Of a stretch of 64,000 bases of DNA, positions 13,983-50,123 are shown piece by piece. The translations under genes were made by a program, and so were the position numbers. The notes beneath the pieces are model-generated. The model searched no databases, was not told the DNA's origin, and worked only from the letters and a program-made list of their open reading frames with translations. Numbering within the stretch: position 1 is the first letter of the stretch; each line of letters begins with the position of its first letter. This stretch comes from an uncultured Actinomycetota bacterium (GTDB lineage: Bacteria; Actinomycetota; Actinomycetes; Mycobacteriales; Mycobacteriaceae). The DNA is taken from NCBI GenBank assembly GCA_963830605.1, contig CAWHML010000007.1, forward strand, positions 30,053-94,052, written 5' to 3'.

Positions 13983-14525
13983 TCATAACTGGCCGCTCGA
14001 CGCCCTGTTGACCAGATACGTCAGCGCGTCATCGGCCCCGCTGGGCAAGGCGTCGGCCGGCCACCAGCGCAAGTCCACCGATTCGTCGCTGAGCCTGATC
14101 TGCGCGCCGGCCGGAGCGTGCGCGACGAACTGCAGGTCGAGGTGACGGGTCGGCACGCCCAGCGAGCAGGTGACCGGATGGACGTGCACGGCAGCCAGTT
14201 GCGAGTCGATCCGTAGGCCGGCGACGCCGGATTCCTCGCTGGCTTCACGCAACGCCGCCGCGACGATGTCGTCGTCGTCGTCCTCGCAGTGCCCGCCCAG
14301 CTGCACCCACCGGCCCAATCGCGGATGCAATGTCAGCAGCACCCGGGTGCCGCTGTCGTCGAGCACCAGCGCAGAGGCGGTGACATGACCGGCAACGCAA
14401 TCTCGCCGGCATGAGTCACTGCGACCGTGCACGAATGCCAGCACGGCGTGCCGCAGGGAGTCCTGGGTTGCGTTCGGAGCCTGCCAGCCGGCCAACAGTC
14501 CGACTACCGAATCACGAACGCTCAC
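13983..14525 (-). CDS. NUDIX hydrolase
   Basis: Nudix box [24 protein letters not shown]; HVTASALV motif. Confidence 0.9.
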
Positions 14526-15865
14526 TTGACGATCAACATGCCATCAACCGGCGCCGGTGGTCGGGGTTGCTGCTCAGGTGTTGTCGGATAGCCGATTGCG
14601 ATGGCGCCCAGCGGTTCCCACTCCGTCGGCAGCTGCAGCTCAGCACGCACGACGTTTGCGGCGAAGATGGTCGAGCCGATCCAGCAGCTACCCACGCCGC
14701 GCACCGCCAGCGCGACCAGCAGCGCTTGCACAGCGGCTCCGACCGCGACGGTGAACATGGTGCGCTCAGCCTGGGTGCGGGCGGTGTCGGGATAGCTGTG
14801 GGCACCGTCGGGCGCCAGCATTGGAACGACGACTTCTGGTGCTTCGTAGAGAATTTGGCCGCGGGCTATCCGCCGCTCGATGGCATCGGCGGGCTTGCCG
14901 TCACCGCCGAGATCGGATCGCCACTTGTCTTGCATGCGGTCGAGCAGGCGGCGGCGAATCGCAGCGTCGCGCAGCCAGACGAACCGCACCGGCCGGGTGT
15001 GGTGCGGCGCCGGGGCGGTCAGGGCCTCGGCCGTCGCCGCTTCGATCAGCTGGGCGGGCACCGGCTCGGCACTGAACTGTCGTATCGATCGGCGCAGCAG
15101 TTGGGCTTGGCGGCGGCCGGCGTCGAGTGCTTCGGCGGTGCCGAGCCAAAACAGGTCGTCAGTACCCGAGCGCACCAGCTGCCGTGCCGTCGAGCCGTCG
15201 TCGCCGAAGCGCAAACCGCGTACCACGGCGGCCGGGATGGCGGTCAGTTTGCCCTTGACCAGATCGGCCGCTGCGGCCACCTCGTCGGCGACGGCGATCT
15301 CGGTAACGATCAGCTCGTTGCCGTGCGGATCAGTCGCACCGGCGTAGCCGTGCAACACGGCCATCCCGGCGCTGCCCACCGCCACGTCGGTTTGGCCGTT
15401 GCGCCAGGCTCGGCCCATCGTGTCGGTGATAACAACGCCCACGGTGACACCGAGCAGCTCGGCCAGCGCGGTGCGGAGCCTCGCAGCGCTGGTGTCCGGA
15501 TCGACCGGGAGCAAGGCCAATTCGGCCGCGTCGACGTTGGAGCCGTCGACACCTGCGGCGGCCTGCACCAGTCCGAGCCGATTTTCGGTGATCAACGTGC
15601 GTCCCTTGCGGGCCAGCACCCGAACCGCTTCATCGTCAATCAAGCTGCGCCGCAACGTGTCGCGAGCCTCGGCGTTCGTGGGCGCGGATACCAGCCGGCC
15701 CTCGCACTTGGACACCACCTTGCTGGTCACTACCACGACGTCACCGTCGCGCAGCCATGGTGCCGCCTGCGTGAGAGCTGCGGCCAGGTCGTCACCGGGC
15801 CGAAATTCCGGAAGTCCTTCGATCGGCAGGATTTCCACTGTCGAGGCGCTGCCGTGATCTGTCAC
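14522..15865 (-). CDS. fbiB: Coenzyme F420-0:gamma-glutamyl ligase FbiB
   Basis: [23 protein letters not shown] and DTMGRAWR plus a C-terminal nitroreductase-like domain; GTG start overlaps the fbiA stop. Confidence 0.95.
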
Positions 15866-16851
15866 GCCGCCACACCTGCCAGCTCGAGCCCAGCGCGCAC
15901 CATGGCGGCGGTGGCTTCCGAGTCGGTCATCAACAGCGGTATAGAGCGCACCACCACCCCGTCGATCTCGGCGAAGTCGCCGTCGTGGACGAGCCAGCAG
16001 TCCAGTATTCCGGTACCGCTTCGGGCCCCGTAATAGCGGCCCACCGCCTCGGCGGTCGACTCGACGCCGACCACGGTCAAGCATTCGTAGGCCATGCCGC
16101 GCAACGGCTTTCCCGCGATGAGAGGCGAATAACCGACGATCGGCGCCGGCGCGGATCGCAGCGCACCGCGAATACCCGGGATCGCGAGGATGGCGCCGAC
16201 ACTCACGACCGGGTTCGACGGCGCCACCAAGATGACGTCCGCATCGGCGATCGCTGCCACCACGTCGGTTGCGGCTTGGGCCTTTTCGGCTCCGACGAAC
16301 GCGAAGCTGTGTGTCGGCACCTGTGCGCGGTAGCGCACCCACCATTCCTGAAAATGAATCGCCCGCCGATCGCCGTCGGCAGGGTCGCTGATGACCACGT
16401 GGGTTTCACAGCGGTCGTCACTGGCCGGCAGCAACCGGGCACCGGGCTGCCAGCGGTCACACAGCGCCGCGGTGACCTGCGAGAGCGGGTAGCCGGCACG
16501 CAGCATCTGACTACGCACCAAATGGGTGGCCAAGTCGCGGTCGCCGAGTGCGAACCAGTCCGGCTGCACGCCGTAGCGGGCCAATTCCTCCTTGGCATGC
16601 CACGTTTCATCGCGGTGTCCCCAGCCGCGCTGCGGGTCGACGCCGCCCCCCAAGGTGTACATGCAGGTGTCGAGGTCCGGGCAGATGCGCACGCCGTGCA
16701 TCCAGGCGTCGTCACCGATGTTGACGACCGCGGTCAGCTCATGGTCACTTGACGCGCCGGCACCGGAGAACTGTCCCAGTCCCAACAATTGCTGGACACC
16801 GACGAGGAAGCGCGCGCCGCCGACGCCACCGACCAGAACCGTCACCTTCAC
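15862..16851 (-). CDS. fbiA: 2-phospho-L-lactate/phosphoenolpyruvate transferase FbiA (CofD)
   Basis: [37 protein letters not shown] and APSNPVVS. Confidence 0.96.
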
Positions 16852-17173
16852 ATCGCACGACCCTACGCCCGGCGCGGATGAAGCTTCGACTCCTTCCGCG
16901 GCGGCCGATGACCGGTGTGAGCAACACGCCGGAATCCCAACGGCCGCAGAGTGGCTAAATTTCGGTCACGACATGATATTTAATTTCGTTTCAACGCTTG
17001 ACCAGACCAGCTCACGCGTGTGTAATCACAGCAGTGTCATTTCCCGGTTGGCCGGCCGGATTCGGTGTCGCAGACCGAGATTCGATCATATGTTCGAATC
17101 GAGATGGCCGCAGTACTACAGCAGCACAGCGGGCGACATTCATAATCACCGATTCAGTTCAGGAGGCGGCCCA

Positions 17174-17545
17174 ATGTCCTTAGAGCAGCGATGGGGCTTA
17201 GCGGAAGGCATAGTGGGCGGCACACCGCACACGACCGCCGTTCCGGCGGCGACAGCGGCGATGACGCGACCCCACTTAAGTCTAGTTCCCAGTGCGGCAC
17301 CGGTTTTCGAGTCGGCCCCACTGAGCAGTGACCAATGGCAGGACCGCGCACTGTGCGCCCAAACCGACCCCGAGGCGTTCTTTCCGGAGAAGGGCGGCTC
17401 CACCCGCGAGGCGAAAAAAATCTGCTTGGGCTGCGAGGTACGTGCGGAGTGCCTGGAGTACGCCCTTGCCCACGACGAGCGCTTCGGCATCTGGGGCGGG
17501 CTCTCCGAGCGTGAGCGCCGTCGGCTCAAGCGCGGCATCATCTAG
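17174..17545 (+). CDS. whiB2: WhiB family transcriptional regulator WhiB2 (WhmD)
   Basis: WQDRALCAQTDPEAFFPEKGGSTREAKKICLGCEVRAECLEYALAHDERFGIWGG; AGGAGG SD at 17161. Confidence 0.96.
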   Translation: MSLEQRWGLAEGIVGGTPHTTAVPAATAAMTRPHLSLVPSAAPVFESAPLSSDQWQDRALCAQTDPEAFFPEKGGSTREAKKICLGCEVRAECLEYALAHDERFGIWGGLSERERRRLKRGII

Positions 17546-17560
17546 CAATCGGCTGTCGGA

Positions 17561-17983
17561 CTAACTGTCCTCGATCGTCGGGTCGATCACCGAGGGCTCG
17601 ACGTCCAAGTAGGTGGCGACCTGAGCCACCAGCACCTCGTGCAGTAGTTCGGCGAGTTCGACGGTGTCCTTTGCGCGTCGTTCGATGGGTTTGCGGAACA
17701 GCACGATTCGCGCCCGGGTGGCGTTGCCACGGACGTCGACACCGGCCGGGATCAGCCGGGCCAGCGCGATCGGGCCGTCGGCGACAACTTCAGGTGGCCA
17801 CTGCACGTTCTCGGGGTCTTTGGCCGCAATGCGCGGAATCTCGTCGACCGCGACATCGAGCCCCGACACCCGCTCCTGCCAGCGCCGTTCGATCGGTTCG
17901 TAAGCCTCCAGCACCGCCATATCGAAGCGTTCGGCCCGGCTGCGCCACCCCGGCACCGTCGGGGGAAGCAACGGCCCCCGCAT
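17561..17983 (-). CDS. Zincin-like metallopeptidase family protein (Rv3259 ortholog)
   Basis: MRGPLLPPTVPGWRSRAERFD...RIVLFRKPIERRA...HEVLV. Confidence 0.9.
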   Translation of the reverse strand: MRGPLLPPTVPGWRSRAERFDMAVLEAYEPIERRWQERVSGLDVAVDEIPRIAAKDPENVQWPPEVVADGPIALARLIPAGVDVRGNATRARIVLFRKPIERRAKDTVELAELLHEVLVAQVATYLDVEPSVIDPTIEDS

Positions 17984-18138
17984 TTCGCGTCCTCGACGAG
18001 AGGACCTCCGCGCTGAGCGGGCATTTCGGGAGCTGCGCACATCGCCCACCTGGCGATGGTAACGGTTGAACATCGCGGCTCGGCCGATTGCGCGTGTCCG
18101 CCACTGCGACGGCGTTTTTGCACGATAGCCTCTCGATC

Positions 18139-18576
18139 GTGAAGGTTCCCCGTCGCTGCTGCCGGCCCGGGTGTCCGCTTTACGCGGTGGCGACGTTGAC
18201 CTTCGTGTACTCCGATTCCACCGCGGTGGTCGGTCCGCTGGCTACCGCCAACGAGCCGCACTCGTGGGATCTGTGTGTTGGCCACGCCAGCCGCATCACT
18301 GCGCCCCGCGGTTGGCAACTCGTCCGCCACGCCGGCGCACTGGTCGCACCTCCCGAGGACGACGACCTGGTCGCGCTGGCCAACGCGGTGCGCGAAGGTG
18401 TCCGGGAGGGCCGCCCGCCGGTCAATGGCTTCTCCGACTCGGCCCGTCACGCAAACGGCGCAGCGGTCCCGGTCTCCGGCAACGGTGCGCTGGCACCGGC
18501 AACGACACACCACCCCAGCGGCACCGGCCGCCGACGTGGCCACCTGCGGGTATTGCCGGATCCGCCGGCTAACTAA
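18139..18576 (+). CDS. DUF3499 family protein (Rv3258c ortholog)
   Basis: RRCCRPGC...AVATLTFVYSDSTAVVGPL...HSWDLCVGHA..ITAPRGW; C-terminal RGHLRVL. Confidence 0.9.
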   Translation: MKVPRRCCRPGCPLYAVATLTFVYSDSTAVVGPLATANEPHSWDLCVGHASRITAPRGWQLVRHAGALVAPPEDDDLVALANAVREGVREGRPPVNGFSDSARHANGAAVPVSGNGALAPATTHHPSGTGRRRGHLRVLPDPPAN

Positions 18577-18599
18577 TCGACCTTCTCCAAGGTGTCGAC

Positions 18600-20360
18600 T
18601 CAGCGTGCGCCACGCACGAGCCGGCCCGGGCGCGCACCGGTGTCGACGCCGTCGCGTCGGGTGACGACGCCGTTGACGATCGTCGCGCTATAGCCCGAAG
18701 CGCCCTGGATCAGACGGTGACCCCCGGCGGGAAGGTCGTAGGCCATGCGTGGGGGATGCAACCTCAGTGCGGCCATGTCGATGACGTTGAGGTCAGCCTT
18801 CTTGCCTGTTGCGATCACTCCGCGATCGGTGAGCCCGAACAGCTGCGCTGTGTCGTGCGACTGCTTGCGGATCACGTACTCCAAAGGCAGCTTCTCGCCG
18901 CGGTGCCGATCGCGCGCCCAGTGCGTCAGAAGAAACGTCGGGTACGACGCGTCACAGATCATGCTGCAATGCGCCCCACCGTCGGACAACCCCACCACCC
19001 CGGCTGGATGCATCAACATCTCGCGAATCGCGTCATGGTTGCCGTAGAAGTAGTTGTAGAACGGCAGCATCAGCATGGCGCTGGCGTCGGACTCCAGCAT
19101 CAGGTCGTACAGCGTGGACAACGGGTCTTCGCCTCGATCGGCGGCGATATTGGCGACGACCCGTTCGGGGGTCGGCTCGTAGTCGGGCGGATCGCCCAGC
19201 GCATAGATTCGCCCCAGCGAGTACTGCACCAGCGCGAACATGTTGTCGAACAGCAACGTTGGGTCGGGCGGCAGATCGTCTTCGGCCAGAATCGCCGCTT
19301 TCACCGCGGGATCGGCCAGCCGCCGCGCCAGCTCCTCACGGTCACATTCGGCCTTCAGCCGACGAAACGTCGGACGATGGGTGAACGCGTGATGGCCCGG
19401 GAAGCCGAAGAGCATGCCGAACGGGCGCGCGGCGATCTGCGGATACAACTGACTGCCTGCCGCATGAGCAGCCGCCGAGATATCCAGTTGCTCCCGCCAC
19501 AGGTCGGGGGCCGCGTCGACCTGGATCATGCCGAAGGAGATCGGCCGGTCGATCTCGGCGCCGAGGCGCTGCATCCACTCCAGTTCCTTCTTGGGCGCGA
19601 TAATGTCCTCGCCCGCAACGCCCTGCGGAGCCAGCTCGAAAACGGCCCGGCCGCCGGCCGCCATAGCCCGGCCAAGACCGAACAATTCGTCTTCTGCGGC
19701 ATACGTTCCCGGGACCGGCTCCCCGTCGATGGCGCGGTGACCGAGGGTCCGGGAAGTCGAAAAACCCAGCGCGCCGGCCTCGACCGCCTCCTGCACCAGT
19801 TGAGCCATCGCTTCGATGTCCTCGGGCGAAGCAGGCTCGTTGCGGGCGCCGCGTTCGCCCATCGCGTAGGCGCGCACCGCGCCGTGCGCCACCTGGCTGC
19901 CCACGTCGACAGCGAATCGCTGCTTCTCGACGACGTCGAGGTATTCGGGATAGCTCTCCCAGCCCCACGAGATGCCCTCGGTGAGTGCAGTGCCGGGAAT
20001 GTCCTCGACACCCTCCATCAGTCCGATGAGCCAGTCCTCGTGTCCTGGCCGCACCGGAGCGAAGCCGACGCCGCAATTGCCGCCGACGACGGTCGTCACC
20101 CCATGTCCGCTGGACGGCTCCAGCAGGCTGTCCCAACTGATCTGGCCGTCGTAGTGAGTGTGGATGTCGACAAATCCCGGCGCGACGAGCCTTCCCGTCG
20201 CGTCAATCGTCTCGGCGGCGTCACCTTCCAGCGCAGAGTCACCCGGCGAGCGGCGACGAACCTCGACGATCTTGCCGTCGGCGACGGCGACGTCGGCCAG
20301 AAATCGGTCCACGCCCGTCCCATCGACGACGGTGCCGTTAGTGATCTTGAGGTCGAACAC
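18600..20360 (-). CDS. N-acyl-D-amino-acid deacylase family amidohydrolase
   Basis: [43 protein letters not shown] and [10 protein letters not shown]. Confidence 0.9.
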
Positions 20361-20402
20361 GATGACTCCCTCGAATGCCGCACGAGCCGCTACGGTGGTC
20401 AA

Positions 20403-20417
20403 TGTAACACTGTTACA
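20403..20417. promoter_or_regulatory. Candidate TetR operator in the divergent promoter
   Basis: Perfect inverted repeat TGTAACA-C-TGTTACA between the divergent amidohydrolase and Rieske starts. Confidence 0.6.
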
Positions 20418-20444
20418 GACAGTCGTCTGCTGTGAAGGTGAACC

Positions 20445-21779
20445 GTGAAGCAACCAGCCGACGCGATCGGCACGCCGCCGGCACGCCCGACGTCGGTGCC
20501 GGCGCAGCGCTACTACTCGCCGGCGTTCGCACAGCTCGAGGTCGAGCGAATGTGGCCCAAGGTGTGGCAGCTGGCCTGCACCGTCGACCATGTCGCCGAA
20601 ACGGGTGACTACTTCGAGTACCGTTGCGGCCCTTACTCGGTGCTCGTCGTTCGCGGCGACGACGGGCAACTTCGCGCGTTTCAGAATGTGTGCCGCCATC
20701 GCGGCAACTCACTGTGCACGGGCTCCGGTTCGGACTTGCGCACACTGCGGTGCGGCTATCACGGCTGGACGTGGGACCTCTCCGGCGCGCTGAAGCGAAT
20801 CCCGAACCGCAAAGGCTTCGGAGCGCTGCGAATGTCGGACTTCCCCTTGGTCAGCGTCACCGTCGATGTCTGGGAGCGGCTCGTTTTCGTCAACCTCGAC
20901 GTCGATGCGATGCCGCTGGTCGACTATCTGGAGACGATGCCGGACGACATCGAGTGGTGCGGGCTCGGTGACTTCCGCTGCTACGCCACCATGACGATCG
21001 AGGTCGAGGCGAATTGGAAGACGATCGCCGACGGTTACAGCGAGACCTACCACGTGCAGACGTTGCATCCCGAATTGCAGAGGTGCATGGACGACGTCCA
21101 TGCACCGCAAGCGATCTGGACTCATACCGGCAAGTCCGAACAGTTCTACGGTGTCGCAAGCCCGCAGCTCAAAAAGACGCTCAGCGACGCCGAGGTGTGG
21201 GACGCATACGTCCAGACGCAGGGTGCGCTGATGGGTGTCTGCGACGGCACTCCGTTCCCGGTCGACCGAGCGGCGCCGGGACGGTCCGTTGCAGAGGTGA
21301 TCGCCGAGCGCACAAAAACTTTCGCCGCTGAGCGCGGTGTCGATTTAAGCTGGGCCAGCACCGACCAGATGATGCGACTGCACCAGTACAACGTTTTTCC
21401 GAACATGACGCTGCTCGCCAACGCCGACCACCTCACGGTCATGACCTCTCGCCCCGGGCCGGATCCGGATCACGGTGAGCTGGTGATGTTCCTGTGGACG
21501 CGAATGCCGCCCGGTGCGCCGCGAGCGAAGCCGGCCGAGGTACGGATGACCGCGGCTGAGGCTGAACCCGGGCTGGTGATGACCCAGGACATCACCGTGC
21601 TGGCGGGGCTGCAACGCGGCTTGCGTCAGCCGGGGCTCAGCCACTTGACGCTGTCCAACGAAGAACGGCGCATCATCAACATGCACCGGAATCTGGAACG
21701 CTACCTCGACTTGCCGCAGGCTGAGTGCATGACCGGGGGTGAGACCGTTGACTGCCTTGCGGCCCAAAACGAGGGGTGA
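20445..21779 (+). CDS. Rieske non-heme iron oxygenase alpha subunit (ring-hydroxylating/demethylase type)
   Basis: Rieske motif NVCRHRG...CGYHGW; mononuclear Fe ligands NWK...ETYHVQTLH and late QD. Confidence 0.92.
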   Translation: MKQPADAIGTPPARPTSVPAQRYYSPAFAQLEVERMWPKVWQLACTVDHVAETGDYFEYRCGPYSVLVVRGDDGQLRAFQNVCRHRGNSLCTGSGSDLRTLRCGYHGWTWDLSGALKRIPNRKGFGALRMSDFPLVSVTVDVWERLVFVNLDVDAMPLVDYLETMPDDIEWCGLGDFRCYATMTIEVEANWKTIADGYSETYHVQTLHPELQRCMDDVHAPQAIWTHTGKSEQFYGVASPQLKKTLSDAEVWDAYVQTQGALMGVCDGTPFPVDRAAPGRSVAEVIAERTKTFAAERGVDLSWASTDQMMRLHQYNVFPNMTLLANADHLTVMTSRPGPDPDHGELVMFLWTRMPPGAPRAKPAEVRMTAAEAEPGLVMTQDITVLAGLQRGLRQPGLSHLTLSNEERRIINMHRNLERYLDLPQAECMTGGETVDCLAAQNEG

Positions 21780-22395
21780 TCCCGCCGGCCAACGGGGCGC
21801 CGGTATCAACGCAGAACTGATTCTGGCAACCGCGGCGGAGCTGATCGAGCGGGACGGCGTCGAGGCGTTCACGATGCGTGGCCTCGCCGAGCAACTCGGG
21901 GTGGCAGTCACTTCGATTTACTGGCATGTCGGCGGGCGGGACAAACTGTTCGACAGCCTGGTCGATCTACTGCTCAGCGAGATGGCGCAGCTGTCGGTCA
22001 ACGGCGATTCTGCGGTGGAACGAATTGCTTCGCTTGCCCGGTCCCAGCGCAAAGCACTGATCGACCGGCAGCATCTGCTGCGCATCGCTCACGAACGCGA
22101 CCGAACGCCGCTGCTGTTTCTGCCCATTCAACAAAAACTGGTGGCAGAGCTGGCGCGCATCGGCGTGACCGGAACCGAGGCCGCACTCGTCTTGCGCGCC
22201 ATCGAAGTGCACGTGATCGCCTCTGCGGTGATGCAGTTCTCGGCTGTTCGCGGCCCCAAACACGACGAGGAGGATCCCTCACTCTGGACTGGGGACTGGC
22301 CCGACCAGGCGCTCGTCCAAGCGCTGCAATCGCCGACCGACTATGACACCGTTTTCGAATACGGGCTGGGCGCCTTGCTGGCGACCCTGAGATGA
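21739..22395 (+). CDS. TetR/AcrR family transcriptional regulator
   Basis: HTH AAELIERDGVEAFTMRGLAEQLGVAVTSIYWHVGGRDKL; start overlaps the Rieske 3' end and is uncertain. Confidence 0.9.
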   Translation: MRPLTALRPKTRGDPAGQRGAGINAELILATAAELIERDGVEAFTMRGLAEQLGVAVTSIYWHVGGRDKLFDSLVDLLLSEMAQLSVNGDSAVERIASLARSQRKALIDRQHLLRIAHERDRTPLLFLPIQQKLVAELARIGVTGTEAALVLRAIEVHVIASAVMQFSAVRGPKHDEEDPSLWTGDWPDQALVQALQSPTDYDTVFEYGLGALLATLR

Positions 22396-22475
22396 GTCAT
22401 TGGCATCGGCCACGATGGTCGCGGCGCAACGGCTAGGCTGACGACCGAAAGATCCCCATCGTCAGGAGCCCGGTG

Positions 22476-23876
22476 ATGTCTCGGCCCGCAGCGGCGGTCA
22501 ACCGTGTGGTCAAGGCTTACGACGTGCGTGGCCTGGTGGGCGAGGAAATCGACGAGTCCCTGGCCGCAGATGTCGGCGCGGCATTTGCCCGGATGATGCG
22601 AGGCGAGGGCGCGCGGAGAGTCGCTATCGGTCACGACATGCGCGACAGCTCACCGGCATTGGCGGCCGCGTTCGCTCGCGGTGTCACCAGCCAGGGTCTC
22701 GACGTCGTCCGCATCGGCCTGTCCTCGACCGACCAGGTCTACTTCGCCTCGGGATTGCTGGAATGTCCAGGGGCGATGTTCACCGCAAGCCACAACCCGG
22801 CTGCCTACAACGGCATCAAGATGTGTCGCGCAGGCGCCAAGCCGGTCGGCGAGGACACCGGACTCGGCACTATCCGCGACGAGCTGGTCGCCGGTGTGCC
22901 GGACTACGACGGGCCGCCCGGAACAGCGACCGATCAGGATGTGCTGGTCGGGTACGGAGCGTATCTGCGCTCGCTGGTCGACCTTTCCGGCCTGCGTCCA
23001 CTGCGGGTCGCCGTGGACGCAGGCAACGGCATGGCCGGGCATACTGCGCCCGCCGTACTGGGTTCCATCGACTCGATCACGTTGCTGCCGTTGTTTTTTG
23101 AGCTCGACGGATCGTTTCCCAACCATGAAGCCAATCCGCTCGATCCGGCCAACCTGGTCGACCTGCAGGAGCACGTCGGGGCCGTCACTGCTGATATCGG
23201 GCTGGCCTTCGACGGGGACGCCGACCGCTGCTTCGTCGTCGACGAGTGCGGCCGGGCGGTGTCGCCGTCGACGGTGACCGCGCTGGTTGCCGCGCGCGAA
23301 CTCGAGCGCGAGATCGGTGCCACCGTCATCCACAACTTGATCACTTCGCGGGCCGTCCCCGAGTTGGTGGTCGAGCGCGGGGGCACACCGGTGCGGTGCC
23401 GCGTCGGCCACTCCTACATCAAGGCGCTGATGGCCGACACCGGCGCCATCTTCGGCGGTGAGCACTCGGCGCACTACTATTTCCGCGACTTCTGGGGTGC
23501 CGACTCCGGGATGCTGGCCGCCCTGTATGTGCTTGCTGCGCTCGGCGAACAGCAGCGGCCGCTGTCGGAGCTCGCGGCGGACTACCAGCGCTACGAATCG
23601 TCCGGCGAAATCAACTTCACCGTGGCCGACGCGGCGTCCTGCGTCGAGGCGGTGCTGAAGTCTTTCGGCGGGCGCATCCACTCCATCGACCACCTCGACG
23701 GTGTGACGGTGGACCTGGGCGACGGCAGCTGGTTCAATCTGCGCAGCTCCAACACCGAGCCGCTGCTGCGGCTGAACGTCGAGGGGCGCTGCGCCGAGGA
23801 CGTTGCCGCAGTGGTCCGTCACATCAGTGCCCACATCAGTGCCCAGACGAACGGCACGGCCGAGGCGGCTTCGTGA
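22476..23876 (+). CDS. pmmA: Phosphomannomutase/phosphoglucomutase (Rv3257c ortholog)
   Basis: KAYDVRG, TASHNP, DGDADR and GGEHSAHYYF. Confidence 0.95.
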   Translation: MSRPAAAVNRVVKAYDVRGLVGEEIDESLAADVGAAFARMMRGEGARRVAIGHDMRDSSPALAAAFARGVTSQGLDVVRIGLSSTDQVYFASGLLECPGAMFTASHNPAAYNGIKMCRAGAKPVGEDTGLGTIRDELVAGVPDYDGPPGTATDQDVLVGYGAYLRSLVDLSGLRPLRVAVDAGNGMAGHTAPAVLGSIDSITLLPLFFELDGSFPNHEANPLDPANLVDLQEHVGAVTADIGLAFDGDADRCFVVDECGRAVSPSTVTALVAARELEREIGATVIHNLITSRAVPELVVERGGTPVRCRVGHSYIKALMADTGAIFGGEHSAHYYFRDFWGADSGMLAALYVLAALGEQQRPLSELAADYQRYESSGEINFTVADAASCVEAVLKSFGGRIHSIDHLDGVTVDLGDGSWFNLRSSNTEPLLRLNVEGRCAEDVAAVVRHISAHISAQTNGTAEAAS

Positions 23877-24961
23877 ACGCCGTGGGCGCCGCGGTCGACC
23901 TCGACGACGCCGAGGGGTTGATCGCCGCTGACCGCGACGCTCTACTGCGGGCCGCGTCATCGGCGGGCGCCCAGGTGCGGTCGACCGCGGCGGCACTGGA
24001 CGAAGGCGCGCTGGACTCGGTGCGCGGTCCCGGTCCGCCTCGCACGGTGGTCTGGGTCGCCGGCCAAGGCACTGCCGAGACGGCCGGTGCGATGCTGGCC
24101 GCGTCGCTGGCCGGGGTAGCCGCCGAACCGATTGTGTTGGCCGCCGATGCACCGCCGTGGATCGGGGCGTTGGACGTGCTGGTAGTGGCCGGCGACGATC
24201 CGGGCGACCCAGCGCTGGTGAGTGCCGCCGCGACCGGTGTGCGCCGGGGCGCCCGGGTCGTCGTCGCCGCGCCCTACGAAGGCCCGCTGCGGGACACGAC
24301 CGCCGGTCGGGTGGCGGTGCTGCAGCCGCGGATAGCGATGCCCGACGAGTTCCGGCTGTGCCGGTACCTGGCCGCAGGGCTGGCTGTATTGGAGAGTGTG
24401 GATGCCGGGCTGCGGACCGACCTCGGGCTGCTGGCCGACGAGCTGGACAGCGAAGCGCTGCGCAACAGCGCCGGCCGGGAGGTGTTCACCAACCCGGCGA
24501 AGGCGCTCGCCCTGCGCTTGTCCGAGCACCGCGCCGCGCTGGCCGGCGACTGCGCCGCCACTCTGGCGCTGGCCAGGCACGCGTCGTCGGTGTTGCTGAG
24601 AATCGGACACCAGGTAGTGTCCGCGGCCGGGCTGGCGGACGCGCTGATCGCGCTGCACACCACACCCGAGCACCTCGATCCGGCGGACGCGCTGTTCCAC
24701 GACGAACAGATCGACGGTCCGCTGCCGCAGCGGCTCCGCGTCTTCGCACTGACGCTGGCCGCCGAGCGCACCGTGGTGGCCGCGCGACTGGCCGGGCTCC
24801 GCGACGTCGAGCTGGTCGGTGCCGACGACATTCCTGACCTGCCGGACCCTGCAGCCAGCGCACCGGCGCCGCTCGGTGTGCAACGCACCGAGCAGCAGCT
24901 GGCAATACTGGCCGTCCGGCTGGAGATGGCCGCCGTTTACGCGCGACTGGTGCGGGGATAA
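23873..24961 (+). CDS. SIS-like protein, Rv3256c/TobH ortholog
   Basis: VDLDDAEGLIAADRDALLRAASSAGAQVR...ILAVRLEMAAVY; lies between pmmA and manA. Confidence 0.85.
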   Translation: MNAVGAAVDLDDAEGLIAADRDALLRAASSAGAQVRSTAAALDEGALDSVRGPGPPRTVVWVAGQGTAETAGAMLAASLAGVAAEPIVLAADAPPWIGALDVLVVAGDDPGDPALVSAAATGVRRGARVVVAAPYEGPLRDTTAGRVAVLQPRIAMPDEFRLCRYLAAGLAVLESVDAGLRTDLGLLADELDSEALRNSAGREVFTNPAKALALRLSEHRAALAGDCAATLALARHASSVLLRIGHQVVSAAGLADALIALHTTPEHLDPADALFHDEQIDGPLPQRLRVFALTLAAERTVVAARLAGLRDVELVGADDIPDLPDPAASAPAPLGVQRTEQQLAILAVRLEMAAVYARLVRG

Positions 24962-29425: not shown

Positions 29426-30631
29426 ATGACGGGTCAGATCGCCCCAGAGGTGTGGCAGGACAGAAAGCGTTATCTGTGGTTGCTCGGGCTCATCGCCCCG
29501 ACCATGCTGACGGCAATCTTGCCGATCGTGTGGGGCATGAACCAGCTCGGCTGGCGGACCGCCTCACAGACGCTGTTCTGGGTCGGCCCGATCCTGGTCT
29601 ACATTGTGTTGCCCGTGCTTGACCTGCGGTTCGGACCCGACGGCCAGAACCCGCCCGACGAGGTAATGGAGCGGCTGGAGAACGACAAGTACTACCGCTT
29701 CTGCACCTACCTCTACCTTCCCTTCCAATACCTCAGCGTCGTCCTGGCGGCCTACCTGTTCACCGCGTCGAACCTCGGCTGGCTGGGCTACGCCGGCCCG
29801 CTCAGCTGGCCGGCAAAAATCGGGCTGGCGTTGTCGGTGGGTGTTCTCGGCGCAGTGGGCATGAACGCCGCGCACGAGATGGGCCACAAGAAGGACGCGC
29901 TCGAGCGGTGGCTCGCCAAGATCACGCTGGCCCAGAGTTGCTACGGCCACTTCTACATCGAGCACAACCGGGGGCACCACGTGCGGGTCGCCACGCCCGA
30001 AGACCCGGCGTCGGCTCGCTTCGGCGAATCGTTCTGGGAATTCTTGCCGCGCAGTGTTTTCGGGAGCTTGCGCTCGGCGTGGCGGCTGGAGTTCCAGCGG
30101 CTGCGCCGGCTGAACAAAAGCCCCTGGCACCTGTCCAACGACGTGCTCAATGCCTGGCTGATGTCGGTTGTCCTGTGGGGAATGATGATCGCGGTGTTCG
30201 GCCCGGCCCTGATCCCGTTGGTGATAGTCCAGGCGGTATACGCCTTCAGCACATTCGAGACGGTGAACTATCTCGAACACTACGGATTGCTCCGGCAGAA
30301 AACCGCCAACGGCCGCTACGAGCGCTGCGCACCCGAGCACAGCTGGAACTCCGATCACATCGTGACCAACCTGTTCCTCTACCACCTGCAGCGTCATAGC
30401 GATCACCACGCCAACCCGACACGGCGCTACCAGACATTGCGCAGCATCGACGGCTCGCCCAACTTGCCCGGCGGATACGCGTCGATGATTTCGCTGACCT
30501 ACTTTCCGCCGCTGTGGCGAAAAGTCATGGACCACCGGGTGCTCAGCCACTACGACGGTGACATCACCAGGGTCAACGTGCATCCGCGGCGCAGGCGGCA
30601 GCTGCTGGCCCGGCATGCGGCGGTGTCGTAA
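29426..30631 (+). CDS. alkB: Alkane 1-monooxygenase
   Basis: His boxes AHEMGHK, EHNRGHH, NYLEHYGL and LQRHSDHHA. Confidence 0.97.
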   Translation: MTGQIAPEVWQDRKRYLWLLGLIAPTMLTAILPIVWGMNQLGWRTASQTLFWVGPILVYIVLPVLDLRFGPDGQNPPDEVMERLENDKYYRFCTYLYLPFQYLSVVLAAYLFTASNLGWLGYAGPLSWPAKIGLALSVGVLGAVGMNAAHEMGHKKDALERWLAKITLAQSCYGHFYIEHNRGHHVRVATPEDPASARFGESFWEFLPRSVFGSLRSAWRLEFQRLRRLNKSPWHLSNDVLNAWLMSVVLWGMMIAVFGPALIPLVIVQAVYAFSTFETVNYLEHYGLLRQKTANGRYERCAPEHSWNSDHIVTNLFLYHLQRHSDHHANPTRRYQTLRSIDGSPNLPGGYASMISLTYFPPLWRKVMDHRVLSHYDGDITRVNVHPRRRRQLLARHAAVS

Positions 30632-47034: not shown

Positions 47035-47526
47035 ATGCGGGTCTACCTCCCGGCGACGCTGACCATGCTGCAGCAGCTGGTCGCCGAAGGGTCGTTGTGG
47101 CCCGTCAACGGCACCGGATTCGCGGTGACGCCGCGGTTGCGGGAGGCCTACGCTCAGGGCGACGACGACGAGTTGGGCGAGGTGGCACTGCGTGATGCCG
47201 CGCTGGCCTCGCTGCGGCTGCTTGCTGGTTCTGAGGAGTCGCCGCGGCGCCGAGCGGTGCTCGTCGCTGACGTCGACGATGTGACGCCGCGGCCGGATCT
47301 CGACGATGCGGTGGTCCGCCTCGGCCGCCCGGTCGCCATGGAAGATGTTGTCGCCGCATTTGTGGACAACGCGGCTGCGGAAGCGGCTGTGACGGCAGCG
47401 ATCGCCGTCGTGGACGATGCTGACTTGGGCGATGAGGACGCTGAACTGCTGGTCGGCGACGCCCAAGACCACGACCTGGCGTGGTACGCGACCCAGGAGC
47501 TGCCGTTCCTGCTCGACTTGCTGTAG
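47035..47526 (+). CDS. Conserved hypothetical protein (Rv3231c ortholog)
   Basis: [12 protein letters not shown]...[15 protein letters not shown]. Confidence 0.88.
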
Positions 47527-47551
47527 CACAGTGCCAAAACGAATCCGACCG

Positions 47552-47571
47552 AAGTTACGGTACCGTAGGTT
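47552..47571. promoter_or_regulatory. Candidate operator, TACG-N4-CGTA family
   Basis: AAGTTACGGTACCGTAGGTT, 16/20 identical to the site upstream of desA3. Confidence 0.55.
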
Positions 47572-47620
47572 GCAGCAGCGGGTTCGGGGCTACTCCGACC
47601 CTCATCCTGCAGGAGTTTCC

Positions 47621-48757
47621 ATGACCAGAAAAACCGCGAAGGTGACGGCTGAGGTCGTCGACACCCGACGCCCCACTGTCGCCGGCGTCGACAAGCATCC
47701 CGGTTGGCATCGGGTACGCAGGGCCGTCTCGCGGATCACGACGCCGCTGCTGCCAGATGACTATTTGCATCTGGCGAATCCGCTGTGGACCGCCCGTGAG
47801 GTGCGGGGCCGGGTGCTGGAGGTCCGCCGGGAGACTGAGGACTCGGCGACGCTGGTAATCAAACCGGGTTGGGGCTTCACCTTCGACTACCAGCCCGGCC
47901 AGTACATCGGAATCGGTGTGCCGGTGCAAGGCCGCTGGCGGTGGCGATCGTATTCGTTGACCTCCAGCCCTGTGACACGGGCGCGCACCATCACCATCAC
48001 AGTCAAGGCGATGCCAGAAGGTTTTCTGTCAAGCCATCTGGTCGAGGGCGTCGCGCCGGGAACCATCGTCCGGTTGGCAGCACCGCAAGGCAACTTCGTG
48101 TTACCGGACCCGGCACCGCCGGAAATCCTGTTCATCACCGCCGGATCGGGCATCACGCCAGTGATGTCGATGCTGCGCACCTTGGTTCGTCGCGAACAGC
48201 TCACCGATGTGGTCCACCTGCATTCAGCTCCTACCGTCGCCGATGTGATGTTCGCCGCGGAGCTTGACCAGCTGAACCGCGATCATGGCGGATACAAATT
48301 GCAATTGCGCACGACGCGAAGCCAGGGTCGGGTTGACCTTGATCGACTGGATGGTGAAGTGCCGGACTGGCGGGTGCGCCACGCCTGGGCGTGCGGACCT
48401 GAAGCCATGCTCGACGATGCCCAACGGGTGTGGTCGGCAGCCGGGGTCTCCGAGCGGCTGAACCTCGAGCGGTTTGCGGTGTCGCGCGCGGCCCCGGCCG
48501 GGGCCGGCGGGACCGTGACCTTCGCGAAGTCCGGAAAGAGCGCCGTCGCCGACGCGGCCACCTCGCTGATGGACGCCGGCGAGCGGGCGGGTGTGCAAAT
48601 GCCCTTCGGCTGCCGGATGGGTATTTGTCAGTCGTGTGTGGTCGACCTGCTCGAAGGCCACGTTCGTGACTTGCGGAGTGGCGATGAGCACGAACCGGGT
48701 ACTCGCATTCAGACCTGCATCTCCTCAGCATCCGGGGACTGCGTGCTGGACGTGTAA
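47621..48757 (+). CDS. NADPH oxidoreductase partner of DesA3 (ferredoxin reductase family, Rv3230c ortholog)
   Basis: [25 protein letters not shown] and 2Fe-2S motif [10 protein letters not shown]. Confidence 0.93.
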
Positions 48758-48836: not shown

Positions 48837-50123
48837 ATGGCGATCACTGACGTCGACGTATTCACACATTTGACCGATACCGATATTGACAACCTGGCGA
48901 CGGAGCTGGATGCCATCCGCCAGGACATCGAGGACTCGCGGGGCGAGCGGGACGCTCGCTACATCCACCGCACGATCGCCGCTCAGCGGGCGCTGGAAGT
49001 CGCCGGCCGAGTGCTGCTGGCAGCAAGCAAGCGCAGATCAGCCTGGTGGGCGGGTACGGTGACTCTCGGTGTGGCCAAGATCATCGAGAACATGGAAATC
49101 GGCCACAACGTCATGCACGGCCAATGGGACTGGATGAACGACCCGGAGATCCACTCTTCCACCTGGGAGTGGGACATGAGTGGATCGTCCAAGCACTGGC
49201 GGTACACGCACAACTTCTTGCATCACAAGTACGCCAACATCCTCGGCATGGATGACGACGTCGGCTACGGCATGCTGCGCGTCACCCGCGATCAGCGCTG
49301 GAAGCGTTTCAACCTGCTCAACCTGGTGTTCAACACCGTGCTTGCGTTGGGATTCGAGTGGGGAGTCGGTCTGCAGCACGTGGAGATCGGCAAGATTGTC
49401 ATGGGCCGAGCGGACCAAGAGGAGGCCCAGGCGCGGATTGACGAGTTCCTGGCCAAAGCCGGCCGGCAGGTGGTCAAGGACTACGTAGCGTTCCCGGCGC
49501 TGACGTCACTGTCACCCGGCGCGTCGTACACCTCCACGCTCAAGGCCAATGCGCTGGCGAATGTGATCCGCAACGTGTGGGCGAACGCCGTCATCTTCTG
49601 TGGCCACTTCCCCGACGGTGCGGAGAAGTTCACCAAGACCGACATGATCGGTGAGACCAAGGGTCAGTGGTATCTGCGCCAGATGCTCGGCAGCGCCAAC
49701 TTCAACGCCGGGCCTGCATTGCGATTCATGAGCGGCAACTTGTGCCTGCAGATCGAACACCATCTGTATCCCGATCTGCCCAGCAACCGGCTCGCCGAAA
49801 TTTCGGTGCGGGTGCGCGAGATCTGCGACAAATACGACTTGCCGTACACGACAGGCCCGTTCCTGCTGCAATACGCCAAGACGTGGCGCACGCTGGCCAA
49901 GCTGTCGCTGCCGGACAAGTACCTACGGGACACCCCCGACAACGCTCCTGAGACGCGCAGTGAGCGGATGTTCGCCAGTCTGGAGCCGGGTTTCATCGGC
50001 ACCGATGCAGCGACCGGTCGCCGGCGTGGCTTGAAAAGCGCCATCGCCGCCGTGCGGGGTTGGCGACGGGACAAGCGGGCGAAAGCGCAAGCGGCCCGGC
50101 GCCCGAACGACCTGGCAGCTTAG
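48837..50123 (+). CDS. desA3: Stearoyl-CoA 9-desaturase DesA3
   Basis: MAITDVDVFTHL; His boxes HNVMHGQW, HNFLHH and QIEHHLYP. Confidence 0.96.
   Translation: MAITDVDVFTHLTDTDIDNLATELDAIRQDIEDSRGERDARYIHRTIAAQRALEVAGRVLLAASKRRSAWWAGTVTLGVAKIIENMEIGHNVMHGQWDWMNDPEIHSSTWEWDMSGSSKHWRYTHNFLHHKYANILGMDDDVGYGMLRVTRDQRWKRFNLLNLVFNTVLALGFEWGVGLQHVEIGKIVMGRADQEEAQARIDEFLAKAGRQVVKDYVAFPALTSLSPGASYTSTLKANALANVIRNVWANAVIFCGHFPDGAEKFTKTDMIGETKGQWYLRQMLGSANFNAGPALRFMSGNLCLQIEHHLYPDLPSNRLAEISVRVREICDKYDLPYTTGPFLLQYAKTWRTLAKLSLPDKYLRDTPDNAPETRSERMFASLEPGFIGTDAATGRRRGLKSAIAAVRGWRRDKRAKAQAARRPNDLAA

Follow-up and report, generated by a model that had tools for sequence, protein, structure and literature searches.

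The 64,000-nucleotide (nt) stretch analysed here as a whole (hereafter the window; positions 30,053 to 94,052 of contig CAWHML010000007.1, assembly GCA_963830605.1, from an uncultured member of the Mycobacteriaceae, genome G000) carries a three-gene cassette encoding an amidohydrolase, a Rieske non-haem-iron oxygenase alpha subunit and a TetR-family regulator. The cassette is a real, well-delimited module of known enzyme superfamilies but uncharacterised branches, from whose characterised members it departs by an oxygenase without a Cys-x-x-Cys pair and a hydrolase without the histidines of the beta metal site. The explanation that we favour, with moderate confidence, is a TetR-repressed divergent unit encoding a two-enzyme module for a possibly cationic amide.

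The amidohydrolase gene (18600-20360, minus strand, 586 amino acids (aa), GTG start at 20360; Pfam Amidohydro_3, E 5e-55) and the oxygenase gene (20445-21779, plus strand, 444 aa; Pfam Rieske, E 5.4e-18, and Ring_hydroxyl_A, E 3.2e-27) diverge from a control region of 84 bp that was read directly between their start codons (20361-20444). The regulator gene (21739-22395, plus strand, 218 aa; Pfam TetR_N, E 1.1e-10, and TetR_C_1, E 1.7e-5) has three candidate starts (21739, 21748 and 21757), all of which precede the oxygenase stop codon (21777-21779), so that the two genes overlap by 23 to 41 nt; the next in-frame ATG, at 21874, would truncate the helix-turn-helix (HTH) domain. The tetR gene is probably co-transcribed with the oxygenase gene. 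An earlier note, made by a model from the letters of the window, had described this gene content, the divergent transcription from an 84-bp spacer and the tetR/oxygenase overlap, and all of them were found where it had placed them.

The three genes were conserved together. A scan of one genome per species returned 382 stretches encoding relatives of the oxygenase, of which the best 80 (76-83% identity) were kept; those with a taxon name belonged to Mycobacterium, Mycolicibacterium or Mycobacteriaceae, and the rest were Actinomycetota metagenome-assembled genomes. An amidohydrolase orthologue was present in 76 of these 80 loci, a TetR orthologue, downstream of the oxygenase, likewise in 76, and the full trio in 73. 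The earlier note had proposed a check of the trio's co-occurrence across actinobacteria and had named a lack of joint conservation as part of what would count against its reading; with the trio in 73 of 80 related loci, the genes travel together. Five of the seven incomplete loci end at contig ends (L022, L038, L043, L071, L073), L066 keeps a remnant of the amidohydrolase gene only and has no TetR, and L077 is without the amidohydrolase; in L078, about 2 kb is inserted between the two enzyme genes. Clustering of the flanking open reading frames (ORFs) separated at least five unrelated neighbourhoods around the trio, and no reductase, ferredoxin or transporter common to them was found. Since the trio is kept in at least five unrelated flanking contexts, the trio itself is the conserved unit.

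The two enzyme genes also stayed side by side in other arrangements. In a second layout, found in the Mycobacterium loci L123 and L124, a different TetR, an APH/EcKL-type kinase, the amidohydrolase and the Rieske oxygenase are encoded in one direction. A third layout, short-chain dehydrogenase/reductase (SDR), amidohydrolase and Rieske oxygenase (hydrolase 55%, oxygenase 66-71% identity), comes from a second genus, which belongs to a different family within the class. This adjacency, kept in three gene orders, is good evidence that hydrolase and oxygenase work together. The surroundings of the second-genus operon include a P450, two SnoaL_4 proteins, a zinc alcohol dehydrogenase (ADH), another SDR and an Amidohydro_2 protein. 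The kinase gene of the second layout, of the small-molecule APH/EcKL type, lies ahead of the hydrolase-oxygenase pair (7031-8173 in L123 and 12481-13623 in L124), which may mean that some species also phosphorylate the target compound. Reading the substrate from the SDR neighbours (clusters 4, 15 and 17, the second-genus operon and L132) was tried and led to no conclusion, as the loci are interrelated and SDRs are common.

The control region holds a perfect 15-bp palindrome, TGTAACACTGTTACA (20403-20417), which is proposed as the TetR operator. The pattern TGTAAC-N3-GTTACA occurred once in the window, with 0.01 matches expected by chance, and this was its single exact match in the whole 4.47-Mb genome. 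It was found in 75 of 76 related spacers, and the 76th (L066) has one mismatch. Across 92 evaluable oxygenase-orthologue loci, in which a few genomes were possibly counted twice, motif and TetR orthologue occurred together in 82 and were jointly missing from 8, the motif never occurred without TetR, and TetR occurred without the motif in two loci (L077 and L078), both rearranged. The conservation of the motif and its co-occurrence with the TetR orthologue fit TetR control.

A candidate rightward promoter may lie just before the palindrome, where the hexamer TACGGT (20391-20396, plus strand) ends 6 nt upstream of it; in 61 of 77 spacers, a TANNNT hexamer ends 5-7 nt before the palindrome. We take this hexamer to resemble the mycobacterial -10 element. 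A scan with a generic sigma-70 consensus returned no promoter-like site in 18400-22600. The locus has the appearance of a classical TetR divergon, in which a single candidate operator precedes the oxygenase start by 35 bp and the hydrolase start by 42 bp, and tetR would be autoregulated by read-through from the oxygenase gene. The best solved relatives of the regulator in the Protein Data Bank (PDB) were ActR (E 6.6e-12) and the TetR classes. Like TetR/ActR-type repressors with a TetR_C_1 domain, it combines HTH and TetR_C_1 and has a 15-bp palindrome in the promoter region of its proposed target genes; it differs from them in that it adjoins two enzyme genes instead of an efflux pump, and its palindrome is a predicted operator. 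A wider TetR regulon was considered and rejected, since the genome holds no second exact operator and its two one-mismatch sites both fall inside long ORFs. In the spacer of L003 (about 6 kb into that locus), a second, imperfect copy of the palindrome, TGTAATAGCGTTACA, follows 8 nt after the first; these tandem operators suggest that operator number may vary between species.

In the favoured explanation, a TetR dimer bound to the 15-bp palindrome would block both divergent promoters when no inducer is present and, because tetR is proposed to be read through from the oxygenase gene, would also block its own gene; the substrate or an intermediate would release it. The cytoplasmic metallo-amidohydrolase, of D-aminoacylase fold, would then cleave a C-N (amide) bond, with its metal probably at the His-x-His/Asp site only. 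An alpha-only Rieske monooxygenase, built like the alpha3 enzymes CntA (carnitine monooxygenase) and Stc2 (stachydrine demethylase), would hydroxylate or dealkylate the same compound or the hydrolysis product, a target most likely to carry a cationic nitrogen, with electrons supplied by an FNR-type reductase whose gene lies elsewhere in the genome. Within this model we infer that TetR represses, that the hydrolase hydrolyses and that the oxygenase is a monooxygenase, and likewise what kind of substrate is used, which step comes first and which reductase serves. A two-step pathway of amide hydrolysis and oxygenation had also been put forward in the earlier note; its two-enzyme, regulated outline gains from the pair conserved in three gene orders and from the palindrome that accompanies TetR, and its chemistry is still conjectural.

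The oxygenase was compared in an alignment of 81 sequences (6 orthologues and 75 relatives, down to about 30% identity). Its Rieske ligands C83, H85, C103 and H106 were invariant in all 81, as were the iron ligands H203, H208 and D382, a 2-His-1-carboxylate set. The bridging residue E200 was Glu in all 6 orthologues and 73 of the 75 relatives (79/81 overall). Y198, placed at the position of CntA Tyr203 by a phmmer alignment, was Tyr or Phe in the 6 orthologues and Phe in 62 of the 75 relatives. According to the excerpted text of PMC7948474, group V Rieske enzymes are defined by a bridging Glu and by position 203, which is occupied by Tyr or Phe (clade Va) or by Asn (clade Vb), and the CntA residue at this position makes a pi-cation contact with an ammonium group.

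Sequence and fold searches both returned CntA first. A sequence search of the PDB gave CntA at E 1e-29 and Stc2 at E 3e-25. With the AlphaFold2 (AF2) model of the oxygenase (pLDDT 92.2) as query, Foldseek placed CntA and Stc2 best and the alpha subunits of biphenyl and naphthalene dioxygenases close behind, all at 17-21% identity; the match to CntA, from the group Va carnitine monooxygenase CntA/CntB (PDB 6Y8J and 6Y9C), had a TMt of about 0.8. Common to CntA and the window oxygenase are an alpha-only architecture (predicted here), the His-x4-His and Asp iron ligands, the bridging Glu (E205 in CntA, E200 here) and an aromatic residue two positions before it (Y203 in CntA, Y198 here), the last two as given in the excerpts of PMC7948474. 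The two proteins differ in length (444 aa here, 391 aa in the solved CntA chain), and their sequence alignment spans residues 4-226 only. No reductase gene is adjacent here, and the window oxygenase is paired with an amidohydrolase, a partner not mentioned in the excerpted CntA literature. Stc2, the second-best match, and the glycine betaine monooxygenase GbcA, both of group Vb, have the bridging Glu in common with the window oxygenase, but carry Asn where it has Tyr (PMC7948474, in the same excerpts). The oxygenase thus resembles a group V monooxygenase in its predicted architecture and in two signature residues, and its membership of group V is not established.

A search of 1.84 billion representatives returned one full-length relative at 75% identity, the next full-length ones standing at 35-39%, and none of the 18 nearest full-length relatives scanned passed the cut-off of a named (equivalog) family. 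As far as sequence tells, the oxygenase family is isolated and fits no named family. Pfam Ring_hydroxyl_B had no match in the genome, which is 100% complete; with no such gene, the oxygenase must work without a beta subunit.

This last point bears on the alternative of aromatic-amide catabolism, in which the hydrolase would free aniline or an aromatic acid from an anilide, a phenylurea or an aryl-acylamide, and the Rieske enzyme would be a ring-hydroxylating dioxygenase. The catalytic domain is indeed Pfam Ring_hydroxyl_A, the alpha subunits of biphenyl, benzene and naphthalene dioxygenases scored little below CntA and Stc2, weak NCBIfam hits were obtained to HcaE, AndAc and BenA, and the regulator resembles the aromatic-polyketide-binding repressors ActR and TetR. 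However, dioxygenases with Ring_hydroxyl_A normally need the beta subunit that the genome lacks, the bridging Glu and the aromatic residue at the -2 position are as in CntA-type enzymes (PMC7948474, in the text excerpted), and no ring-cleavage or dihydrodiol dehydrogenase genes were seen to travel with the trio in the flanking-ORF clustering. We consider this alternative unlikely.

In the cassette and within about 5 kb of it, no beta subunit, ferredoxin or reductase is encoded, as the earlier note had observed. Electron carriers supplied in trans are therefore necessary, and they are feasible, because three FNR-type reductases (FAD_binding_6, NAD_binding_1 and Fer2 domains) are encoded elsewhere in the genome, all outside the cassette; so much of the note's suggestion of carriers borrowed in trans holds, and their actual use is a proposal. 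These reductases measure 355 aa, 432 aa and 446 aa, the last within the window (47417-48757, plus strand). The 355-aa protein is presumably of the KshB type. The 446-aa reductase, with a C-terminal 2Fe-2S domain, is encoded directly upstream of a fatty-acid desaturase gene (48837-50123, plus strand), about 25 kb from the cassette. With neither a reductase nor a transporter of its own, the cassette is less than the "self-contained" module that the note had called it, a description that goes too far.

The amidohydrolase found its best solved relatives among D-aminoacylases (E about 1e-30 in the PDB). Foldseek on its AF2 model (pLDDT 91.2) returned 1m7j, 1rjq, 1v4y, 3gip and 9g5m (E 1e-33 to 1e-30), with 9kb3 also among the best, at TMt 0.75-0.77. 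These fold neighbours are D-aminoacylases, an N-acyl-D-glutamate deacylase and the sugar de-N-acetylase PpOngB (20-24% identity), all of them N-acyl C-N hydrolases. The best matches in sequence and fold, the D-aminoacylase 1M7J of Alcaligenes faecalis and the N-acyl-D-glutamate deacylase Bb3285 (3GIP), have the His-x-His motif, the GNCG cysteine and the strand-8 Asp in common with the window hydrolase, which is about 100 residues longer, at an identity of 24%. The residues H67 and H69 (HxH, strand 1), C96 (strand 2) and D460 (strand 8) were present in all 120 orthologues and in 28 of 28 relatives down to 35% identity; within the 120 orthologues, H159, H208, E242 and H464 were invariant as well. 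The orthologues are 85-95% identical, with 285 of the 586 positions invariant.

Other actinobacterial classes have homologues at 46-70% identity, many genomes encoding three or four of them, with no adjacent Rieske gene. The loci L132-L146 come from small-genome actinobacteria of other classes (about 2-5 Mb) with three or four paralogues of the hydrolase subfamily each (38-69% identity), all without the beta-site histidines; their genes adjoin those of SDR, alpha/beta-hydrolase, dienelactone hydrolase, acyl-CoA synthetase or thiolase proteins. Together they seem to form a separate hydrolase clade, as yet uncharacterised. Genome G000 itself encodes two further paralogues of the amidohydrolase, at C3:1575127-1576833 (43%) and C5:424552-426246 (35% identity), neither near a Rieske gene.

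Several observations weigh against the favoured explanation. In the fold alignment, the oxygenase shares no more than 19-20% identity with CntA and Stc2, and it lacks the Cys-x-x-Cys pair, having T201 and V204 (I204 in 5 of 6 orthologues) in place of Cys206 and Cys209 of CntA; no Cys was seen at these two columns among the residues tabulated from the 81-sequence alignment. In CntA and Stc2, this pair brackets the first of the iron-binding histidines; it occurs in some group V members only and is needed for CntA activity, according to the excerpted text of PMC10952381. The hint of a quaternary-amine substrate in the earlier note draws some sequence support from the bridging Glu and from the aromatic residue at the CntA Tyr203 position, but the GbcA model, which was the top NCBIfam match, reached 117.6 bits with a cut-off of 670.

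The hydrolase raises a difficulty of the same kind. In the alignment, A244 and M278 stand where 1M7J has His220 and His250, which we take to be the tight zinc (beta) site of that enzyme, a numbering that agrees with the aligned chains. In the AF2 model these two residues end the predicted strands 240-244 and 274-278. Position 244 was Ala in 120/120 orthologues and position 278 was Met, Leu or Val in 120/120; His was never found at either position in the 120 orthologues or in the 28 relatives down to 35% identity. The strand-5 position is His in the wild-type chain 1m7j and Ala in 1v4y, which is listed under a study of the binuclear metal centre, and 1rjq is listed as the D366A mutant. The hydrolase probably uses the His-x-His/Asp metal site, with the beta site lost, and as both beta-site histidines are missing, its catalytic competence is something we infer. 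For the same reason, the N-acyl-D-amino-acid-deacylase type assigned in the earlier note agrees with the fold, the HxH motif, the Cys and the Asp, but is a loose label, to be read as a database name and not as a substrate assignment.

The pairing of the two enzymes is not obligatory, as an Embleya oxygenase orthologue (59% identity) lies beside an SBP_bac_5 binding protein, an MMPL protein, a TetR and an MFS protein with no hydrolase, and the closest relative, G013, keeps a lone amidohydrolase (G013:C10, L177) with no oxygenase, TetR or palindrome. Finally, where the genes are arranged differently, their neighbours encode SDRs, a P450, SnoaL-like proteins, an APH/EcKL kinase and MMPL, a hint of a bulky, hydrophobic substrate rather than of a small betaine. 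The two CntA-like residues make the sequence lean towards a cationic nitrogen; that the compound is both hydrophobic and cationic, which would reconcile the two hints, is speculation.

A bolder form of the proposal may also be put forward, as a doubtful one: the pair would be an undescribed two-step route for amides with a quaternary or tertiary nitrogen, formed by a new CntA-like branch without the Cys pair and a hydrolase that has given up the beta site for the His-x-His/Asp site as its place of metal binding.

The cassette is an old accessory unit, mostly mycobacterial, that is retained patchily and sometimes lost. Of 24 congeners, 11 had an oxygenase orthologue, and of 16 other genera of the order none had one; class-wide, it occurred in 12 of 301 genomes (G000 counted), from two genera. 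In G042, the oxygenase gene of the cassette is decayed, being frameshifted and split over two frames (L175/L176, G042:C1:164783-166083). Plasmid carriage was examined in 72,556 plasmid records at a 60% coverage-identity threshold and rejected; the sole match was a 3.1-Mb linear Embleya replicon (58.7%), with no amidohydrolase. One soil-metagenome DNA run contained 0.27 of the sampled words.

A distribution nearly confined to one genus would suit the salvage or turnover of an endogenous mycobacterial metabolite, for instance an N-acylated or N-methylated fragment of the cell envelope or of a cofactor, and not the use of a nutrient or xenobiotic from outside. Such a role would agree with the absence of a transporter gene from the cassette and with the very strong conservation of the hydrolase (85-95% across its 120 orthologues). 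Yet the cassette is patchy within the genus (the same 11 of 24 congeners), it has decayed in G042, G013 and L066, and substrate-inducible TetR control is typical of accessory functions, so this possibility, too, appears improbable, and to about the same degree as aromatic-amide catabolism.

The loss of both beta-site histidines throughout the clade could also mean that the amidohydrolase-like protein is a non-catalytic scaffold or a substrate-binding subunit of the beta-less oxygenase; the superfamily has non-catalytic members, CRMPs are among the fold matches, and the hydrolase and oxygenase genes are adjacent in three gene orders. The invariance of H67, H69, C96 and D460 down to 35% identity argues against such a role, and so do homologues at 53-70% identity that have no Rieske gene beside them and often number several to a genome, from which it follows that the hydrolase protein works on its own. 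This reading is very improbable. That the three genes are neighbours by descent only, with unrelated functions, is barely tenable: the Embleya orthologue and G013 do show each enzyme without the other, but the trio is kept in at least five flanking contexts, the pair stays together in rearranged loci and in a second family, and the genes have a shared control region with a conserved palindrome.

In the window, the cassette lies between a DUF3499 protein gene on the left (18088-18576, plus strand; Pfam DUF3499, E 3.9e-45) and a phosphomannomutase/phosphoglucomutase gene of the pmmA type on the right (22473-23876, plus strand; NCBIfam NF007088, 830 bits with a cut-off of 618). The stop codons of the DUF3499 and amidohydrolase genes are 23 bp apart, and 77 bp separate the TetR gene from pmmA. 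The earlier note called the flanking genes orthologues of Rv3258c and Rv3257c, adjacent in H37Rv, names which are carried over here as an assumption. It regarded the cassette as inserted between two otherwise adjacent genes, and this was borne out, as DUF3499 and pmmA were adjacent in all 27 same-genus genomes with a DUF3499 match (30 searched), and a 441-nt probe over the DUF3499/amidohydrolase junction matched end to end in G000 only, one of 400 same-genus genomes scored (a tally that includes G951 and leaves out G829). The other listed matches of the probe were restricted to its hydrolase portion. None of the best 80 related loci had a pmmA, DUF3499 or zincin gene within 6 kb, and in three of the nearest relatives (G043, G045 and G046) the cassette lies on other contigs or far from DUF3499.

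Only a few bases separate the edges of the cassette block from the outer stop codons, and the 55-60 nt upstream of the pmmA start, which align with the DUF3499-pmmA intergenic region of the closest relative, are retained beside the cassette. No target-site duplication and no terminal inverted repeats were found at 18577-18600 or 22395-22472. Foreign composition was tried as an indication of origin and gave no signal (GC content of the cassette 0.648, of the window 0.656 and of the flanks 0.665-0.672; GC at third codon positions (GC3) like that of the neighbours). The identity of the G000 cassette to those of its relatives was 81-89% for the hydrolase and 79-82% for the oxygenase, similar to that of pmmA (84-89%). 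With a position unique to G000, no foreign composition and no flanking repeats, the cassette reached its place in G000 by relocation or by re-acquisition within the genus, and it sits there as a clean block of three genes.

Within about 5 kb of the cassette, the genes are fbiB-like, NUDIX, WhiB, zincin, DUF3499, pmmA, an unnamed ORF, manA-like and an amino-acid permease, and none is a redox partner. The fbiB-like gene, a fusion of F420 ligase and nitroreductase (14522-16345, minus strand), and the WhiB-family gene (17240-17545, plus strand) lie upstream of the cassette in a conserved housekeeping row. Rfam gave no match in 16500-24500 at E <= 0.1, and PADLOC gave none for the three cassette proteins. 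A full-text literature search, judged on titles and the openings of abstracts, found no publication on the cassette.

No current view is overturned by these results. That three genes moved cleanly, as one block, into a housekeeping row of strong synteny, without trace of a mobile element, is a small and tidy example of gene-order change in Mycobacterium. If the favoured explanation is true, a widespread accessory module of environmental mycobacteria, with orthologues in roughly half of the congeners sampled, would gain a function. The range of CntA-like Rieske monooxygenases would widen to actinobacteria and to enzymes that lack the Cys pair, and the hydrolases of the D-aminoacylase fold would come to comprise one with an altered metal site. 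Together with TetR, the conserved operator offers a direct handle on the inducer and hence on the substrate.

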